In this document: positions 5,400 through 13,200 of the stretch, in pieces
Numbering within the stretch: position 1 is the stretch's first letter
How the letters are laid out: each line of letters begins with the position of its first letter
From: Candidatus Thorarchaeota archaeon
Lineage (GTDB): Archaea > Asgardarchaeota > Thorarchaeia > Thorarchaeales > Thorarchaeaceae
NCBI GenBank assembly: GCA_029855935.1
Contig: JAGSHN010000027.1
Coordinates: forward strand, 1 to 64,000
Reading direction: 5' to 3'
DNA length: 64,000 nt
Notes under the pieces: model-generated
Databases searched by the model: none
The model's input: the letters and a program-made list of their open reading frames with translations, nothing else
What the model was told of the DNA's origin: nothing
Made by a program: the position numbers and the translations under genes

Positions 5400-6284
5400 T
5401 CAGAAGCCCATCCGATGGAGCTCTCTACGAAGGAACTCTCTCGTCGTCACGAGCTCATTCCACCTTGCCGCAAACTTCTCGGGCTCAATCTCCTGACGCC
5501 TATACTTTAGCTCCAGCTCTTGGAGTTCGAGATCGGTCTCCGTTATGCGATCGCGCAGCATCTGGGCCATCAGTGCCGCGGTCTTCTCCTCGGTGTCCGT
5601 CGGCCGCTGCACAGAGACAATCCGGCCGTCCAGAATCCTGTAGATGCGGTCGGTCTGACGCGCAATGGCGGGGTCGTGCGTCACGATAATGACCGTCTTC
5701 CCCATCTCCTTGTTGACCCTGTGAAGAAACTCGACAACCCTTGCCCCGGTCTCCGTATCGAGATCGCCCGTGGGTTCGTCACAGATGAGGATTGGCGGGT
5801 CGTTTGCGAGCGCCGCTGCAATCGCCACACGCTGCTTCTCGCCACCAGACAGTTCGTCAGGCTTGTGATTCATCCGGTCTTGGAGGCCCACGGTCTCGAG
5901 AAGTATCTCTGCTCGTTTCCTCCGCTCGGACTGAGGAGCATTGACAGCAAGCATCGGGAGCTCGACATTCTCGAACGCGGTGAGCGTGGGAATGAGGTTG
6001 AGAGTCTGGAATATGTGACCAACAATCCTCTGACGTAAGTAGCCAAGCTGAGCAGGCGTGGCTGCAGTGATCTCTCTTCCCGCCACCCACACTTGTCCTG
6101 CTGTCGCTGATGTCAGGCCCCCAATGATGTTGAGCAGAGTCGTCTTGCCAGAGCCTGACGGGCCCACAATGGCAATCATCTCGCCCTGTTCGATGCTCAT
6201 CGAGAGCCCTCTCAAGGCCTGAATCTCCACCTTGCCAATACGATAGACCTTCACCAAGTCTTTCGTCTCTATGTAACTGACCAT
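5400..6284 (-). CDS. ABC transporter ATP-binding protein (LolD/MacB family) with C-terminal helical extension
   Basis: [34 protein letters not shown]. Confidence 0.95.
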
Positions 6285-6294
6285 CCCTTCTCAC

Positions 6295-9075
6295 CTACTC
6301 CCTGAGCACGCTGATCTTCTCCTCTGTCAAGCGCGAGGCCAGTAGCACTGGTATCAGTGCCGCAATGACCACGATCATGACAATCGCAAACATCTCTAGA
6401 CCCACAAGGAGGTCGAGGACGATACGGGGGCGGACCAGCTGCATTGCGTTCTGACTCTGGTTGGCAATCTCGCCGAAGAGCTGTACGAGCCCGGTCCCGA
6501 GCCCCAACAACAATGAGAAGACCACCATGACCAGTACTTCACCGAACAGTACCTTCAGCACTTGCCTGCGCTCGAAACCTCTGACACCAAGGAGAGTCAC
6601 CTCGTACTCCTTCTCCTTCAGTGTCAGCCCCACAACCAGAACCGTACCGACTACGGCAAGAACAAGTGCAAAGAGTATGCCCACCCACCGCGTACGAACA
6701 CCAGCCATCTGAAAGTCATTCTCCTGCAATTCCTGTATCTCTGAGGTCATCGAGTGGGTCTCCACATAGTCTGGAAACATCGATGCAAGCTGTTGCTCAA
6801 TCTCGGTGCCGTTGAGGTCGGGTGCTGTCTTGACCAGCAGATGAGGCTGGCAGGAGGACAACAGTCCTGCCGACTCAAGAAAGTCGGTCGGCACGAACGA
6901 CGGGTACAGTCCCGCAAGGGCGAACTGGCCCACGAACTCCTCGAGAGGACTCGCATAGCCAACGAGCTCCACAATCTCAAGCCTGTAGGCGTCGCCCAGA
7001 GCTCTGATCGTGATGAAGTTCCCCACCCGGAGGTCGAGCTCACGTGCCACGGATATCGAGAGCATCACCTTTGACCCAGTGAAATTGTCAAGCGCGGACA
7101 TCGGATTCCCACTGACGAACCAGCCATTCTCGTAGAACGCCGTTTTGGCCCACTCGGTGGCATTGATACCGCGTACCTCCAATGGACCCATCGTGGTGCT
7201 CAGCGAAATACGGTACTCAACTGTCACCGAGACGACTCCGTCTAGGGTCCGTGTAGCCTCAACGACAGGGGTCATATTGTAGCCGGCCGGAAACACCACG
7301 GAGACATCAGAACCCACGGAGTACTGCATATTGCGGAGCGTCCAGTCGGCCTCAGAGTACAGGCTGCCGACACTGTAGACCCCGTACGCCACAATCAGCG
7401 ACAGGACAAAGACCAGGGCCGCGTTTCTGACGGGGTTCCTCCGTACGTTCCGCGTGGCAAGCCGTCCAAAGGCGCCAAAGAATCGTCTCGCAGCACTGAC
7501 TATCGCCGCCTGAAACTTCTGCGACCCACGAAGCAGTATCTTGGTCAGCCCGTACAGGAACAGAATTGGCCCCACAAATCCGAGAAATACGTCGACAGGT
7601 GTCCATATGGCAACGACAATGTACAGTATCAGATTGACTCCGCGGGCAAGGGCCAGCACTGACAATATGTTGATCCCAAGTGCCCACATGATGATCTTGT
7701 ACGTACCAAGTAGCAGGGCGATTGTGGGCAGCAGTCGCCTATACTGACGACGCTCCTCGATGTAGACGTACTGCTTCAGCGCATCAAGAGGTTCCAAACT
7801 GGCCGCGCGATCCGCTGGTCCACGCACCGACCACACCGCAAGTATCATTGTGAAGATAACTATGACCACAGCATCCATCGGGGTACTGGCAATGACGGGC
7901 ATCAGCGACTCAAGACCGGATCCTGCGATGGCGCATCCCATTCCCGCAGCCAGCACAACGCTCAGGGCGCCGGTGCTGATGCCGATTATCGCGGCCTCCA
8001 TCAACAACATCCCGCGAATTCTCTTCGGGCTGAAGCCCTTCGTCTGCAGCAGACCGAACTCCCGTCTCCGCAGGTTGTAGCTGACATCACTGAGCATCGT
8101 TGACGAGTACCAGCTCATGAATATCACAGGCACGGCCATCGCGACGAAGCTCAAGACGATCAACGAACCTATTGCTGACAGAACCGTCAGCAAAGGCGTG
8201 ATGATGCTGGTGACCCGCGTGTTGTACTCAGCGGTGCGGTCTTCAATCTTCGCAACTGCCTGTTCGACGTTGCTGAGTGATCCTGAGAGATCGTATGGGT
8301 TGATGAGCGTATCACGGTCCAATCTACAGAGAAAGGCAGTCTGAACCGCCATCAGCACCACATCGTCGTGGTTCTCGTACCACTTGAGAAGTGGTGCTAT
8401 CGTCTTCTCCCAGTCTACGAGAAGTACGTTGTAGACCCGCTGATTCTGTTGCCGCTGTCGACCCCCACTCAGCTGCTCAAACACCGAGATACTTGAGGGA
8501 TTGAAGAGACGGGCAGTGTTCTCCGAGACGTCGACAAAGCCAGCGACCGTGAGATTGACGAACACGTGACCCACGAAGGGAGGACCTGACAGAAGAAGAG
8601 GGATGTCAACAGTGAGGACCTCCCCGATGGACAGGAGAGAGGCGTTTACTGAAGAGGCCACCACGTACGTCTCATTCGCGGCCAGTGCTGCCGACCCGTT
8701 GATGTGGTGAAGAGACGACATCACGGACGAGTTATCGAACATCCCTACCACAGTGAACGATTGCCCGAGTGTCGCATTATGGGTATAGGTCATACCACCG
8801 TACCTGTCTGCGATCTCCACCTCCGGTAGAGAGTTCAGTACGCTCTGCACCTCGGACAATTCCGAACGCGTCCAGGTGACGTTGTTGGCCACTACGTGGA
8901 CGTCATAGTCAATCTCGCTCAGCGCCGTGGAGACAGCATCAGACGTGAGAACATCCGCAGACATCAGCATGCTCCCAAAGAAGGTCCCTGCAACCAGCAC
9001 ACCGATTACAAGCGCCAGTGTCAGCCTATAGCCACGAGCAACTCTCTTGAGAGCATACTTGAACATCAACCACAC
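6295..9075 (-). CDS. FtsX/MacB-type ABC permease (duplicated, two large extracellular domains)
   Basis: Two FtsX-like halves with RRREFGLLQTKG and KEYEVTLLGVRG motifs. Adjacent to the LolD-like ATPase. Confidence 0.9.
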   Translation of the reverse strand: MWLMFKYALKRVARGYRLTLALVIGVLVAGTFFGSMLMSADVLTSDAVSTALSEIDYDVHVVANNVTWTRSELSEVQSVLNSLPEVEIADRYGGMTYTHNATLGQSFTVVGMFDNSSVMSSLHHINGSAALAANETYVVASSVNASLLSIGEVLTVDIPLLLSGPPFVGHVFVNLTVAGFVDVSENTARLFNPSSISVFEQLSGGRQRQQNQRVYNVLLVDWEKTIAPLLKWYENHDDVVLMAVQTAFLCRLDRDTLINPYDLSGSLSNVEQAVAKIEDRTAEYNTRVTSIITPLLTVLSAIGSLIVLSFVAMAVPVIFMSWYSSTMLSDVSYNLRRREFGLLQTKGFSPKRIRGMLLMEAAIIGISTGALSVVLAAGMGCAIAGSGLESLMPVIASTPMDAVVIVIFTMILAVWSVRGPADRAASLEPLDALKQYVYIEERRQYRRLLPTIALLLGTYKIIMWALGINILSVLALARGVNLILYIVVAIWTPVDVFLGFVGPILFLYGLTKILLRGSQKFQAAIVSAARRFFGAFGRLATRNVRRNPVRNAALVFVLSLIVAYGVYSVGSLYSEADWTLRNMQYSVGSDVSVVFPAGYNMTPVVEATRTLDGVVSVTVEYRISLSTTMGPLEVRGINATEWAKTAFYENGWFVSGNPMSALDNFTGSKVMLSISVARELDLRVGNFITIRALGDAYRLEIVELVGYASPLEEFVGQFALAGLYPSFVPTDFLESAGLLSSCQPHLLVKTAPDLNGTEIEQQLASMFPDYVETHSMTSEIQELQENDFQMAGVRTRWVGILFALVLAVVGTVLVVGLTLKEKEYEVTLLGVRGFERRQVLKVLFGEVLVMVVFSLLLGLGTGLVQLFGEIANQSQNAMQLVRPRIVLDLLVGLEMFAIVMIVVIAALIPVLLASRLTEEKISVLRE

Positions 9076-9178: not shown

Positions 9179-9694
9179 CTAGGATCTCCGCCTTCTGTCA
9201 TAGACGTACGTGACGGCTATGGTCGCCAGAGCAAGCACCAGACTGGAGCCCACCACCCACGGCTCGGTCACCGTCAGGTCGGGGATCTCAGGCGGAACAT
9301 GCGTATCGATGTTGATACGGTAGCTGGTCGCCGAGTTGTTCGCCATATCAAAGGCCATCACATACAGTGCATAGGTGCTGTTCGCCTCCAGACGAGGGAC
9401 TTCCGTGACGTACAGCGAACCATTGAACTGCATCGAATAGTTGTGCAGCGAGACTCCCCGACGCTCCACAAACAGTGTGACGTTACGAACTCCTGACTGC
9501 GGGTCGGACACATTGGCCCATGCCCTGAATGATGCGACCTGCGGATTGCCTTCAATCCCCCACGCACTGATCTCCGGACGTAGAGTGTCTACAGCAGAGC
9601 ATGACCCGACCAACAGAGATGTCGTCAGGACAACCGCAATGAGTGCGGTGACGACCACCCGTAAACGACATCCCAGTGAGGGCTCCGCGGTCAT
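9179..9694 (-). CDS. Small membrane-anchored Ig-like domain protein
   Basis: Signal peptide, then a DTxxP..VSDxxSGVxxV..FNG..YVxAxDxxxN beta domain, then a C-terminal TM and RRRS. Confidence 0.8.
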   Translation of the reverse strand: MTAEPSLGCRLRVVVTALIAVVLTTSLLVGSCSAVDTLRPEISAWGIEGNPQVASFRAWANVSDPQSGVRNVTLFVERRGVSLHNYSMQFNGSLYVTEVPRLEANSTYALYVMAFDMANNSATSYRINIDTHVPPEIPDLTVTEPWVVGSSLVLALATIAVTYVYDRRRRS

Positions 9695-9792
9695 AGTCTC
9701 ACCAGTCCCAGCTCACAAGATATGCTAATCAGTGAACCGATTGAAGCACTCCGGAGCAGAACAACCGCGGACACAGAGAGAGAATAGGGGTG

Positions 9793-9971
9793 CAACAAGA
9801 AGAGGGTGGGCGCAGTTGCCGGGGCAATACGACGCTTGCCGCGCCACCACCTATCAAACACATTTCATTTGAGCGTCGTATTCCACGCGTCCCCTTTTTG
9901 AGACGCGTGCAAGTCACTCGCCGCACGCCAAAGCGAGTGAACGACCCTCGGTCTTGTCGACTGCGCCCATT
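9793..9971 (-). ncRNA. Candidate structured RNA (four-way junction), family unknown
   Basis: Nested perfect stems 9807-9816/9960-9969, 9826-9836/9872-9882, 9884-9891/9902-9909 and 9914-9921/9933-9940. BRE-TATA about 25 nt upstream on the minus strand and a pyrimidine tract downstream. Confidence 0.6.
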
Positions 9972-9990
9972 ATTCAGGTGACAACGAATC

Positions 9991-10005
9991 GGTATAAACT
10001 TTGCC
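9991..10005 (-). promoter_or_regulatory. BRE + TATA box promoter for the structured RNA
   Basis: Minus strand GGCAAAGTTTATACC matches archaeal BRE-TTTATA. Expected TSS about 9970. Confidence 0.65.
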
Positions 10006-10184
10006 AGAACTACGTCATCCCCACCTCACTGGTGAGATGCGGCGATGCTCAGGAGTCCCGGCGAAGACATCCATATCATATCAAATATGCATAAAAAACA
10101 TCTGGTCACATACGCCTCGCGGACGAATCCCGCGCCATAGTATCGGGGGCGCTGAACAGATTGAGTGAGGGGCAGGAAGAGATT

Positions 10185-10224
10185 GGAAAAAGAAAGAGGG
10201 GGTGAGGGGCCAAGCCCCTCTCAC
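10185..10224 (-). terminator. Hairpin plus pyrimidine/T-tract terminator after the giant FG-GAP gene
   Basis: Minus strand GAGGGGC-TTG-GCCCCTC followed by ACCCCCTCTTTCTTTTTCC, 20 nt after the stop at 10244. Confidence 0.7.
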
Positions 10225-10243
10225 TGCGTTGTCTCGACAGATG

Positions 10244-13200
10244 TCACTTGCCCGTCGTGCGTCTGCGACGTCGACGGAGAGCCAGCGCGGCGAGTCCGAC
10301 AAGCAGCGGCGTACCACCTACGGACACGGCGACAGTGAGGCCGAATGCGGAGAAGTCAGACTCGGCCGTGGCAAGGAATGTACCACCCGCGGCTGGCTGA
10401 GTGCCATTCGTCACGACTCCGACGAGGCTGCCCTCGAAGTATGCAACATCCCAGGCAGGCTCCGAGTCAAACTCTGCAGCCACAAAGCCCTCGACGAATC
10501 CCGGTGCTGAATGATACATCGTGGTAGTCGCTGCGTCGGGATCCCATATGACCAGTGTGTTGCCAGCAGAGATCACTGCCGAGTCGTGGTTCCCAGTGGC
10601 GATTGCTCGGACACTCATTGGGCCGACGTAGCTGCCTGCGGACCACAGCGCGACCCACGTCTGGGTAGAGCCTCGACCAAAGTGGACTCCCTCACCCTCT
10701 ACTGCAACGGCCACGCCATCAGCACTGACGCCCGACTCCCATTGTCCTGTGGCGACCGAGGTTATCGCGCCGGTCATTACCTGAAGCCAGAAGTTCTGGC
10801 CAGTCGCTGAGGCATTGATTGTCCTCACGGTCGCGCCCGTGGCTGCGACAACATCGTCGACACCATTCTCATCGAAGTCACCGACAGCGATGTCGGTCAG
10901 GGTGGGACCCGTGAGGTAGTAGTGCTGACGGACGCAGGAGCCCGAGAACATGTACACTGATGTTCCCGCGGCGAGAACAAAGTCAAGCCCTGTCAGGCCG
11001 TCGAACTCTCCTACTTCGAAGTCGACCAGCGATGCGCTGATGTTCACATCGGTGACTGCCTGCTGTACTCCATTCGAGTAGCAGACTGCGTATGTGAGCG
11101 GTGCAGACGTGCTGAAGACCACAACATATTCGTCGCCCAGCACTCCGTGGATGAAGTCGCCAGTCATCACACCAGCGGCCTCGGTGCCGAAGAGGTGGTC
11201 AATCGACGAGATGATGTGACCAGTAGCCCCATCGATGCCGAAGACGCGGGTGAAGCTTGGTGGGTCAGACCGACCAAGGGCCAAGATGTCGAGCACCGAG
11301 TCGCCGTTCAGGTCGCCGAACGTGACCTGCTCCACGTGCGCCCACTGGGACAGGTTCCACAGCACCGACATCGTCTGCGTGCTGTATGCCCAGAGATACT
11401 CGCCCTCCGAGACGATCAGCTCATCCACAGAGTCACCATCGAGGTCCTGTGCCCAGACGCCATCGACATCAGTTGCATAGTTCTGCGACCAGTAGAGGCC
11501 CCAAGATGTGTACGGCGTCGGCCGCGTGTCGGCACCCGCCTCCAGCATCCTGACAACGTACAGTGTGCCGTTGTCAATGGAACCAACGATCTCGTCCATC
11601 CCGTCGCCGTCAACGTCAGCTGCAGCCGCGGCGTTGTAATTCTGGTTCTCGATGTCGAACCAGAGCACGCGACCAGTCAGGGCATCCAGCGCCACAAGGC
11701 CGCCGCTGTCAAGTGCCAGCGCCAGCCCCAGCCGACCATCCGTGAAGGAGCCCTCGTAGGACCCCCGAATCACGCCGGCAAGTGGCGCGTACGTCCAGAC
11801 CTCACGACCCGAGGCGAATTCCTCGTAGTGCACGGCCTTGTTGGTGACCAGCATGGCCTCAAGCTGGGAGTCGTCATCATAGTCTCCAGCGTACAGGAAG
11901 TACGGTAGCTCGCCAGCCGGAAGCGTCTGGGTGGAATTGTAGAGCAGGTCGCCCGTCCGTGGATCCACAATTACAAATCTGTCCCTATAGGTGATGAGAT
12001 CGTCATATCCGTCGCCATTGTAGTCCAAGACCAAGGGGTTGACGTAGGTCGAGCCGACGGTCTCCTCAAGGTGCAGGATCACAGTGCCGTTGCTGCCGTA
12101 GAGAAACGTCACGGTACCGTTCAGGTCGACAAGGGCCAGGTCAAGCTCCGGCCTACCTGAGAAGTTGCCAGCAGCAATCCTCGGCGCCGACAGCAGGCCT
12201 CCTCCAAGGAACCTCGACCAGAGTACGGTACCATTGGCAGCCCACACCTTGACCGTGCTGTTGGAGTTCGTCGCTATCACCTCTGGACCCGGACTTGGAG
12301 CCACATCAGCGACGTATACGTTCCCAGCCCAGTGGAACATAAAGGTGATACCGGTGAACACACGCCGCCACAGGAGAGTCCCATTCGTGGCGTCAAGATA
12401 CGTGTAGTTGCCATCCGAGTGAGACACGCCCAAGCGCAGACCATCGGAAGTGTTCGCAAGGTACATCTCGTGCACACCTGAGCCAGGCCCAGGATAACTC
12501 CACAGAATGCTGCCGCCAGCGCCGTCGAAGGCAGCAATCGTGCCGTTCGTAGATCCCACGATTACCTCATCCTCTCCATCTGAGTCGATGTCATAGGGGA
12601 TGACATACCTGAGAGAGCTGTACGGGACAGCGCCAGCATCGTGGGTCGCCCATACCTGCTCGCTGAACGCAAGCTCCACTGGCGGGAGCGAGGAGTCGTC
12701 AACCTCGAAGATGAAGACCTCTCCGCGTTCGCAGGAGACACCAATCTCCTCGTAGCCGTTGCCGTTGGTGTCATAGACCGTGACACCAGTGACATCGTAC
12801 GGGAATGGGCTCGACACCCAGGCCTCTCTGTGCCTCATCAGTGCACCGCCAAAGTTCGAGTTCTGCAGCTCGTACACGCCGACCCTGTCGTCAAAGCCGG
12901 CTGCGACCTCTCTGCGGCCGTCGTTGTCGGTGTCGCCTGCATCCATCGAGGTGACGCCACCGATGTTGTAGTGGACGAACCGTGACGAGGGGTTGATGCC
13001 GTAGATCAGGTCTGCGTGCTCCTTGTAGAGCTTCCCCGTGTAGTAGGGATTGCTGACATCGAGGAGTCTGCCCTGTGGACCTGCAAGATCATAGATTGTG
13101 CGAATGGAATAGTCAAAGACGTAGACGTAGATGAAGCCACCGCCGACCATTCCAACAATGGCAGGACTGTATGCCGATGGGACGTACAACGGCGCAGGCG

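Follow-up and report, generated by a model that had tools for sequence, protein, structure and literature searches.

What is encoded by the strongly self-complementary stretch that lies upstream of a small membrane protein gene and an ABC exporter operon near the start of a Candidatus Thorarchaeota contig (JAGSHN010000027.1)? The DNA analysed here (the window) comprises the first 64,000 nucleotides of this contig, and an earlier note made from the letters alone had proposed a four-way-junction RNA read from the minus strand, either a new Asgard non-coding RNA or a riboswitch or attenuator for the gene starting at 9694. We find that the stretch is a real, single-copy gene for a folded RNA of ~164 nt that matches no catalogued RNA family. 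The four stems of 10, 11, 8 and 8 bp that had been described are all in the sequence. Within the interval 9790–9975 the outer inverted repeat is 10 nt (9807–9816 with 9960–9969) and the inner ones are 11 nt (9826–9836 with 9872–9882), 8–11 nt (9881–9891 with 9902–9912) and 8 nt (9914–9921 with 9933–9940). At minimum energy the minus strand folds into a four-way junction of −76.7 kcal/mol (z = −2.6 relative to dinucleotide shuffles), and the plus strand likewise folds as a closed four-way junction (−73 kcal/mol, z = −3.7). The fold of this one sequence is only moderately beyond chance, short of the earlier view that chance could hardly explain it, and with z-scores of this size the case for structure rests on comparison with relatives.

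The comparison is decisive, and it vindicates the proposed fold where the single sequence does not. We built a covariance model (R1) of 156 positions and 42 pairs, and in the alignment of 68 homologues 96.9% of the cells pair, compared with 80.1% in column shuffles and 32–48% when the partners are slid by one to three columns. Compensatory changes on both sides are seen in 31 of the 42 base pairs; this alignment is fitted to the covariance model, and independent MAFFT alignments give the same pattern. The strand is equally clear. On the minus strand RNAalifold recovers 44 pairs (−52 kcal/mol), and 27 of these show compensatory changes; on the plus strand, where the helices have many A.C mismatches, it recovers 25 pairs (−23 kcal/mol). 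When the final alignment is read on the minus strand there are 340 G.U or U.G cells and 23 A.C or C.A cells, an excess that fixes the RNA on the minus strand and agrees with the call that had been made from the promoter.

The RNA (9805–9968, minus strand) runs from a 5′ GGGC to a 3′ GCCC-A-CC and consists of a P1/P2 stalk carrying hairpins P3, P4 and P5 on the four-way junction. R1 matches the window at full length (9802–9968, minus strand, 142.8 bits), and all of the helices P1–P5 are kept by covariation. P1 is 9 bp, with its 3′ strand (ACUGCGCCC, 9808–9816) pairing with 9960–9968 (GGGCGCAGU) as part of inverted repeat I3; the four outer pairs (GGGC/GCCC) are invariant, and there are compensatory changes from G-C to A-U at the fifth, sixth and later pairs. 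A variable internal loop separates P1 from P2, which is 5–7 bp and is formed by a 3′ strand at 9819–9825 (GCCC plus CGG) and the segment 9944–9951 (CCG-A-GGGU, with the A bulged). The pairs of P2 covary among G-C, A-U and G.U. The continuation of the outer stem that had been drawn between 9819–9824 and 9946–9951 does not hold as described, since it needs the bulged A. A mutual-information scan for a pseudoknot or tertiary pairs recovered the pairs of the model and one extra covarying pair in P2, and no others; we note that the invariant loops cannot covary. The pseudoknot or alternative conformer that had been suggested between CGACAAGA and TCTTGTTG does not hold up, as both of these regions vary even within the genus.

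The three hairpins show a common pattern in which the stems evolve by compensatory change around conserved unpaired segments. Hairpin P3 (9912–9942) has an invariant loop (UGGCGUGCG, 9922–9932) on a stem in which eight of ten pairs change on both sides. Hairpin P4 (9884–9909) has an A-rich loop (consensus CAAAAU), and all five of its inner pairs change on both sides. The stem of P5 (9826–9882) has such two-sided changes in nine of its ten pairs. Its loop is variable and A/U-rich on the 5′ side and consists of the near-invariant UAGGUGGUGGCGCGGCA on the 3′ side (9837–9853), and a 22-nt stretch is 100% identical across genera. The invariant parts of the RNA are thus the junction (CUUGC, UGGAA and GGGUCG), the P3 loop and the 3′ part of the P5 loop (AGG-UGG-UGG-CGCGG), and the loops of both P3 and P5 are G-rich.

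In three genomes the P5 loop carries hairpin insertions of 29–65 nt (L036:1366–1547, L136:3501–3721 and L137:3501–3691). They fall precisely at the boundaries between the AGG, UGG and UGG units of the motif, such that their removal would restore the invariant sequence, and two types of insertion have common 3′ ends (GGUAAGAY and GGCCGAW) across genomes. A strict scan for bulge-helix-bulge motifs of the kind cut by the splicing endonuclease found none whose removal restores the invariant loop, and the insertions may be tolerated expansions or relaxed introns. A small insertion is also seen in a different RNA of the window's own genome: at the 3′ end of the 16S rRNA (contig C23, ~1259–1288) GGATGGA is followed by ~29 extra nucleotides and then by ATCACCTCCT, which places an expansion or mini-intron just before the anti-Shine-Dalgarno sequence.

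There is a single copy of the element in its own genome (2.97 Mb in 32 contigs, 97% complete). Searches by blastn give one match per genome within the genus at 80–87% identity, together with matches in many other genera of the family, and the edges of conservation are sharp, from GGGC on the 5′ side to GCCCACC on the 3′ side. Of 86 genomes of the family, 68 have exactly one R1 match each, and these 68 include all 16 genera and 21 of the 23 high-quality genomes. When the phylum was sampled evenly, the model hit 29 of the 32 genomes from this family and had no hit among 119 genomes representing 25 other families; the sister family, with one genome, gave no hit either. Searching metagenomes with a pattern of two motifs returned 62 contigs: 31 have full-length R1 matches and are true homologues, and in the other 31 the pattern falls in high-GC bacterial coding sequence and reflects composition. 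Judged from these searches, the RNA family is confined to one family of Thorarchaeota within the Asgard archaea. A few good genomes have no copy (e.g. G012, which is 97% complete, and G013), and the RNA may therefore be dispensable. The apparent absence from the single-contig genome of genus g11 says nothing in this regard, since record CP070761.1, which is probably that genome (the 'complete' chromosome of Thorarchaeota bin27), has a run of 100 N (L060:2759–2859) that falls exactly where the N-terminus of the neighbouring K0 gene and the RNA gene are expected.

These data also bear on whether the element acts as DNA or encodes a peptide. A selfish or DNA-level element (a MITE, a palindromic repeat or an integration site) or a small protein-coding gene might be favoured by the good fold of the plus strand and by the short ORFs that overlap the region on both strands. 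However, the G.U pairs are on one strand only, the compensatory changes keep the helices and not any reading frame, the loops change in length by steps that are not multiples of three, and neither the ORFs nor their start codons are conserved; the 18-codon leaderless ORF of the earlier note has no ATG in most relatives. The element is found once per genome across the family, and a MITE or dispersed repeat is rejected by the one copy in 2.97 Mb and the one per genome in 68 genomes. Copy number and covariation already refute the DNA-element and small-ORF readings, to which we give almost no weight.

The RNA does not correspond to any of the known classes against which it was compared. A search of the whole window with Rfam 15 gave no match at gathering score, and at E≤10 the interval 9650–10250 has none on the RNA and one chance microRNA match beside it; at the RNA position of 12 homologous loci there is likewise no Rfam match at E≤10. 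ARAGORN identifies no tRNA or tmRNA in the window, and none at the RNA when the contig is searched with introns allowed. The RNA has no cloverleaf, D-loop, anticodon arm or T-loop, and no Rfam tRNA match at E≤10. It is not the RNase P RNA, the SRP RNA or 5S rRNA, copies of which lie elsewhere in the same genome and score above the Rfam cut-offs (C5:8597–8941, C14:186572–186882 and C17:75217–75336, respectively). The earlier note had likewise seen no tRNA, SRP or RNase P signatures in the sequence. A tmRNA is rejected, as neither ARAGORN nor Rfam gives a match, the third pair is an invariant G-C in place of G3.U70, and there is no conserved tag ORF. A T-box riboswitch is rejected also, with no match to RF00230 and with downstream genes that encode a membrane protein and an ABC exporter, not an aminoacyl-tRNA synthetase. 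An intron-containing tRNA-Leu(CAA), which the CUCAAAA loop had brought to mind, is discounted because that tRNA is present elsewhere, the loop has 6 nt and a T-loop is missing. The described aptamer classes have no Rfam 15 match here either at gathering score or at E≤10, and a full-text search of the literature found no description of this RNA. Taking the comparative and class-specific results together, we have little doubt that this is a real, new, stand-alone RNA gene on the minus strand.

The ends of the gene are informative. As the earlier note pointed out, the minus strand has a BRE-like GCAAAG (10004–9999) followed by the TATA box TTTATA (9998–9993); this promoter (9993–10004) precedes the first G of the RNA (9968) by 30 nt. 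Most of 65 homologues, and most genera, have a similar BRE/TATA element (of the CCGAAAG-TTATAAC, AAAGGTATATC or GGGTTAAC type) 30–47 nt upstream. A second conserved intergenic block lies ~100 nt upstream of the promoter (10063–10111), between the RNA gene and the end of a gene for a giant FG-GAP protein; it is conserved within the genus only (81–89% identity in G001–G004). At the other end, P1 is directly followed by an unpaired ACC (9805–9807, minus strand), which is invariant in alignments A2 and A3 and resembles a tRNA discriminator base plus CC. The base after it is T in 51 of 65 homologues, C in the other 14, and never A. Beyond this is a pyrimidine-rich trailer (CUCUUCUUGUUG, 9793–9804), a likely termination region whose presence had been noted before and which is conserved in kind: the first 12 nt after ACC are 83% pyrimidine and 59% T across the family. 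The same value, 83% pyrimidine, is found for the trailers of 27 tRNA genes of this genome, where the genome-wide figure is 50%. The transcription of the RNA, its processing and its exact ends are inferred.

The resemblance to tRNA genes extends to several other features. The GGGC...GCCC-A-CC termini are like the acceptor ends of tRNA-Val and tRNA-Ile in the same genome, and several of its tRNA genes begin with GGGC and end with GCCC-A. (A tRNA-Sec gene is also present in this genome.) As in tRNA genes and in tRNA-like RNAs such as the tRNA-like domain of tmRNA, bacterial YrlA and mascRNA, the terminal helix (here GGGC/GCCC) is followed by an unpaired A and CC. The promoter a few tens of nucleotides upstream, the trailer in the style of the tRNA genes of the same genome, the single highly conserved copy, and the duplication of the 3′ end around inserted DNA in some genomes are further points in common with tRNA genes. 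This last feature is seen in four genomes of one genus (L105, L109, L111 and L122, from G072, G075, G058 and G056, respectively), in which the last 33–49 nt of the RNA gene recur as a direct repeat (88–97% identical) 1.9–3.4 kb downstream of the RNA, bracketing genes for an M3 oligopeptidase, an MFS transporter and a NosD-like protein. No integrase is found in the bracketed DNA, which appears to stem from old insertion events in the 3′ end of the RNA gene, as occur at tRNA genes.

There are, however, substantial differences. At ~164 nt the RNA is built differently, its four-way junction standing on P2, an internal loop and a 9-bp P1, and it is without the D-loop, anticodon loop, T-loop, tag ORF, G3.U70 pair or encoded terminal A of tRNA or tmRNA. 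All 27 of the intron-less tRNA genes checked in this genome encode N-CCA. With no cloverleaf, no match to a tRNA or tmRNA model and no A after ACC, it is thus solely the termini that suggest a tRNA-like maturation.

One reading of these features is that the RNA is a true tRNA relative whose function lies at its 3′ end, acting either as an aminoacylated carrier or mimic (compare the tRNA-like domain of tmRNA) or as a T-box-like sensor or sponge of uncharged CCA ends. It would account for the acceptor-like helix with its A and CC, for the tRNA-style trailer and for the 3′-end repeats around the 1.9–3.4 kb insertions in four genomes, and the invariant loops include the complements of ACCA and GCCA, namely UGGU and UGGC. 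In addition, a 17-nt segment of the P5 loop (AUUAGG-UGGU-G-GCGCGG) resembles the bacterial T-box consensus that pairs UGGN with the NCCA end of tRNA, a likeness that we regard as a lead only. The RNA differs from a T-box in being archaeal, in having no specifier loop or Stem I, and in placing the motif in a hairpin loop and not in an antiterminator bulge. It has no match to a tRNA, tmRNA or T-box model even at E≤10, nor a T-loop, G3.U70 or a conserved tag ORF; no homologue encodes the final A of CCA, whereas every tRNA gene checked in the window's genome encodes it, and the bracketed insertions are without an integrase. We consider this reading unlikely. Still more doubtful is the stronger version in which the RNA would be a working tRNA relative of a kind new to archaea, matured by RNase P and the CCA-adding enzyme and serving as a charged carrier or mimic or as a reader of uncharged CCA.

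The genes downstream raise the question of whether the RNA is instead a leader. Its usual neighbour is K0 (9179–9694, minus strand), which is not part of the RNA and encodes a 171-aa protein with an N-terminal hydrophobic segment. K0 has no Pfam or NCBIfam match, and its protein sequence used as a query for related loci gave no match; its homologues are 171–200 aa and lie on the same strand, 3′ of the RNA, in most genera. K0 is followed by a duplicated permease of the FtsX type (9075–6295, minus strand; Pfam FtsX) and an ABC ATPase (6284–5400, minus strand; Pfam ABC_tran, NCBIfam LolD/MacB-like). Together the permease and ATPase (5400–9075) form a MacB/LolCDE-type exporter by Pfam and NCBIfam, and they are relevant here as context only. 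The order RNA-K0-FtsX-ABC is kept in most genera and the genes upstream of the RNA vary. Ahead of K0 is an AT-rich motif (CACTGATTAGCATATC, 9719–9734, minus strand) that is the local version of a conserved, partly palindromic element of the CTAATTAAGG type. This is found 21–45 nt before the K0 start in many genera (CCTTAATTAAGG in one genome), and it stays with K0 even where K0 is 0.6–1 kb from the RNA. The element could be a promoter with an operator. It is preceded by RTGCGY, and in several genera there is a 6-codon frame from an ATGCGY start to the TAA of the motif.

A rival reading is a cis-acting leader (a riboswitch, an attenuator or a protein-binding leader) controlling the K0/FtsX/ABC operon; the earlier note had offered a riboswitch or attenuator for the gene at 9694 as its second reading. 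On this view a ligand-dependent P1 would decide between a stop in the pyrimidine tract and run-on into the operon. The position of the RNA is in keeping with this, since in most genera it lies upstream of K0 and/or FtsX on the same strand, often no more than 47–165 nt from the K0 start, and has differing genes on its other side, and the 47-nt gap in G053 leaves little room for a separate promoter. The anatomy is also that of a typical aptamer, with a multi-stem junction and invariant unpaired bases closed by P1, and K0 in the window's genome (G000) is preceded by a GGTGA ribosome-binding site, which would call for a 5′ untranslated region. We note that in this genome the peak of Shine-Dalgarno signals lies at −16 to −10, with TATA-like hexamers scattered over −68 to −30, so that short leaders are usual. 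Opposing cis control are the genomes in which the RNA and operon have come apart. An opposite-strand ORF is the next gene after the RNA in seven (G020, G024, G044, G045, G048, G060 and G064), where the RNA still scores 104–135 bits, and in further genomes unrelated genes intervene between RNA and operon or follow the RNA, which is intact in all of them. The AT-rich motif points to an independent promoter or operator for K0, and there is one copy of the RNA per genome, in one gene context, with related operons in Bathyarchaeia having no such RNA. Furthermore, no conserved alternative pairing with the downstream region and no expression platform was found.

The four-way-junction riboswitches provide a useful comparison. 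The NiCo, yybP-ykoY manganese and cobalamin classes share with this RNA a junction closed by P1, invariant junction and loop positions and covarying stems, as well as the usual location upstream of a transporter operon on the same strand. The RNA differs in matching no Rfam riboswitch, in occurring once per genome, in having no expression platform that we could find, and in being often split from the operon by genes, including ones on the opposite strand, with the operon having a promoter-like motif of its own. The intervening opposite-strand genes (in at least seven genomes) and the motif of K0 make a riboswitch unlikely and a stand-alone RNA the best reading, and a leader of any kind, including one working through a switchable P1, seems to us improbable. 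The evidence against cis control is stronger than the gene-order evidence for an operon link, although the same-strand adjacency to K0/FtsX in most genera, with varied genes upstream, still fits some functional link. Thus the observation made from the sequence is confirmed and its interpretation partly so: a new Asgard non-coding RNA with its own promoter on the minus strand is borne out by the covariation, the asymmetry of G.U and A.C, the single copy, the lack of an Rfam match and the conserved promoter, and the riboswitch is not favoured, with the pseudoknot and the ORF not conserved.

Our preferred account is of a free-standing RNA of a new family, with its own promoter and a tRNA-like maturation, that acts in trans on a C-rich partner, and as a whole statement we regard it as probable. 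The BRE/TATA promoter would direct a minus-strand transcript of ~155–165 nt that ends in the pyrimidine-rich terminator region. It may then mature as a tRNA does: cleavage at the first G would take off the 5′ leader, and trimming would bring the 3′ end back to ACC, perhaps followed by completion to ACCA. The mature RNA would act in trans and would bind a C-rich partner through its invariant G-rich loops; this partner could be a CCA end, UGGU and UGGC being complementary to ACCA and GCCA, or a protein. The position upstream of the K0/FtsX/ABC operon would be inherited gene order and not a sign of cis control. Considered separately, the tRNA-like maturation and the binding of a C-rich partner are tentative suggestions that derive from the termini and loops. 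When the whole genome was searched for sites complementary to either loop (P3 or P5) or to the tail, the duplexes found were at background level only.

Among archaeal RNAs, sRNA154 of Methanosarcina is a lineage-specific trans-acting sRNA with conserved loops. Like it, the thorarchaeotal RNA is restricted to one lineage, free-standing and equipped with its own promoter, and has several stem-loops of which the loops are most conserved. It differs in being more elaborate, with a closed four-way junction, in having G-rich loops that are not anti-Shine-Dalgarno-like, and in that no target was found.

Asgard archaea are the closest known prokaryotic relatives of eukaryotes, and to our knowledge almost nothing is known about their non-coding RNAs. 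The RNA described here has a strongly supported structure and invariant loops; it is maintained in single copy throughout a family and has no counterpart in Rfam. The tRNA-style ends make it concretely testable, through RNase P processing, CCA addition, and possible charging or binding of CCA ends. If it were aminoacylated, it would be a non-ribosomal aminoacyl carrier or a ribosome-directed mimic; if its UGGU and UGGC loops read the CCA ends of uncharged tRNA, it would bring the principle of the bacterial T-box to archaea in trans-acting form. Cataloguing the RNA would stop its annotation as spurious small ORFs in these genomes, and the covariance model and an alignment of ~100 sequences make this straightforward.
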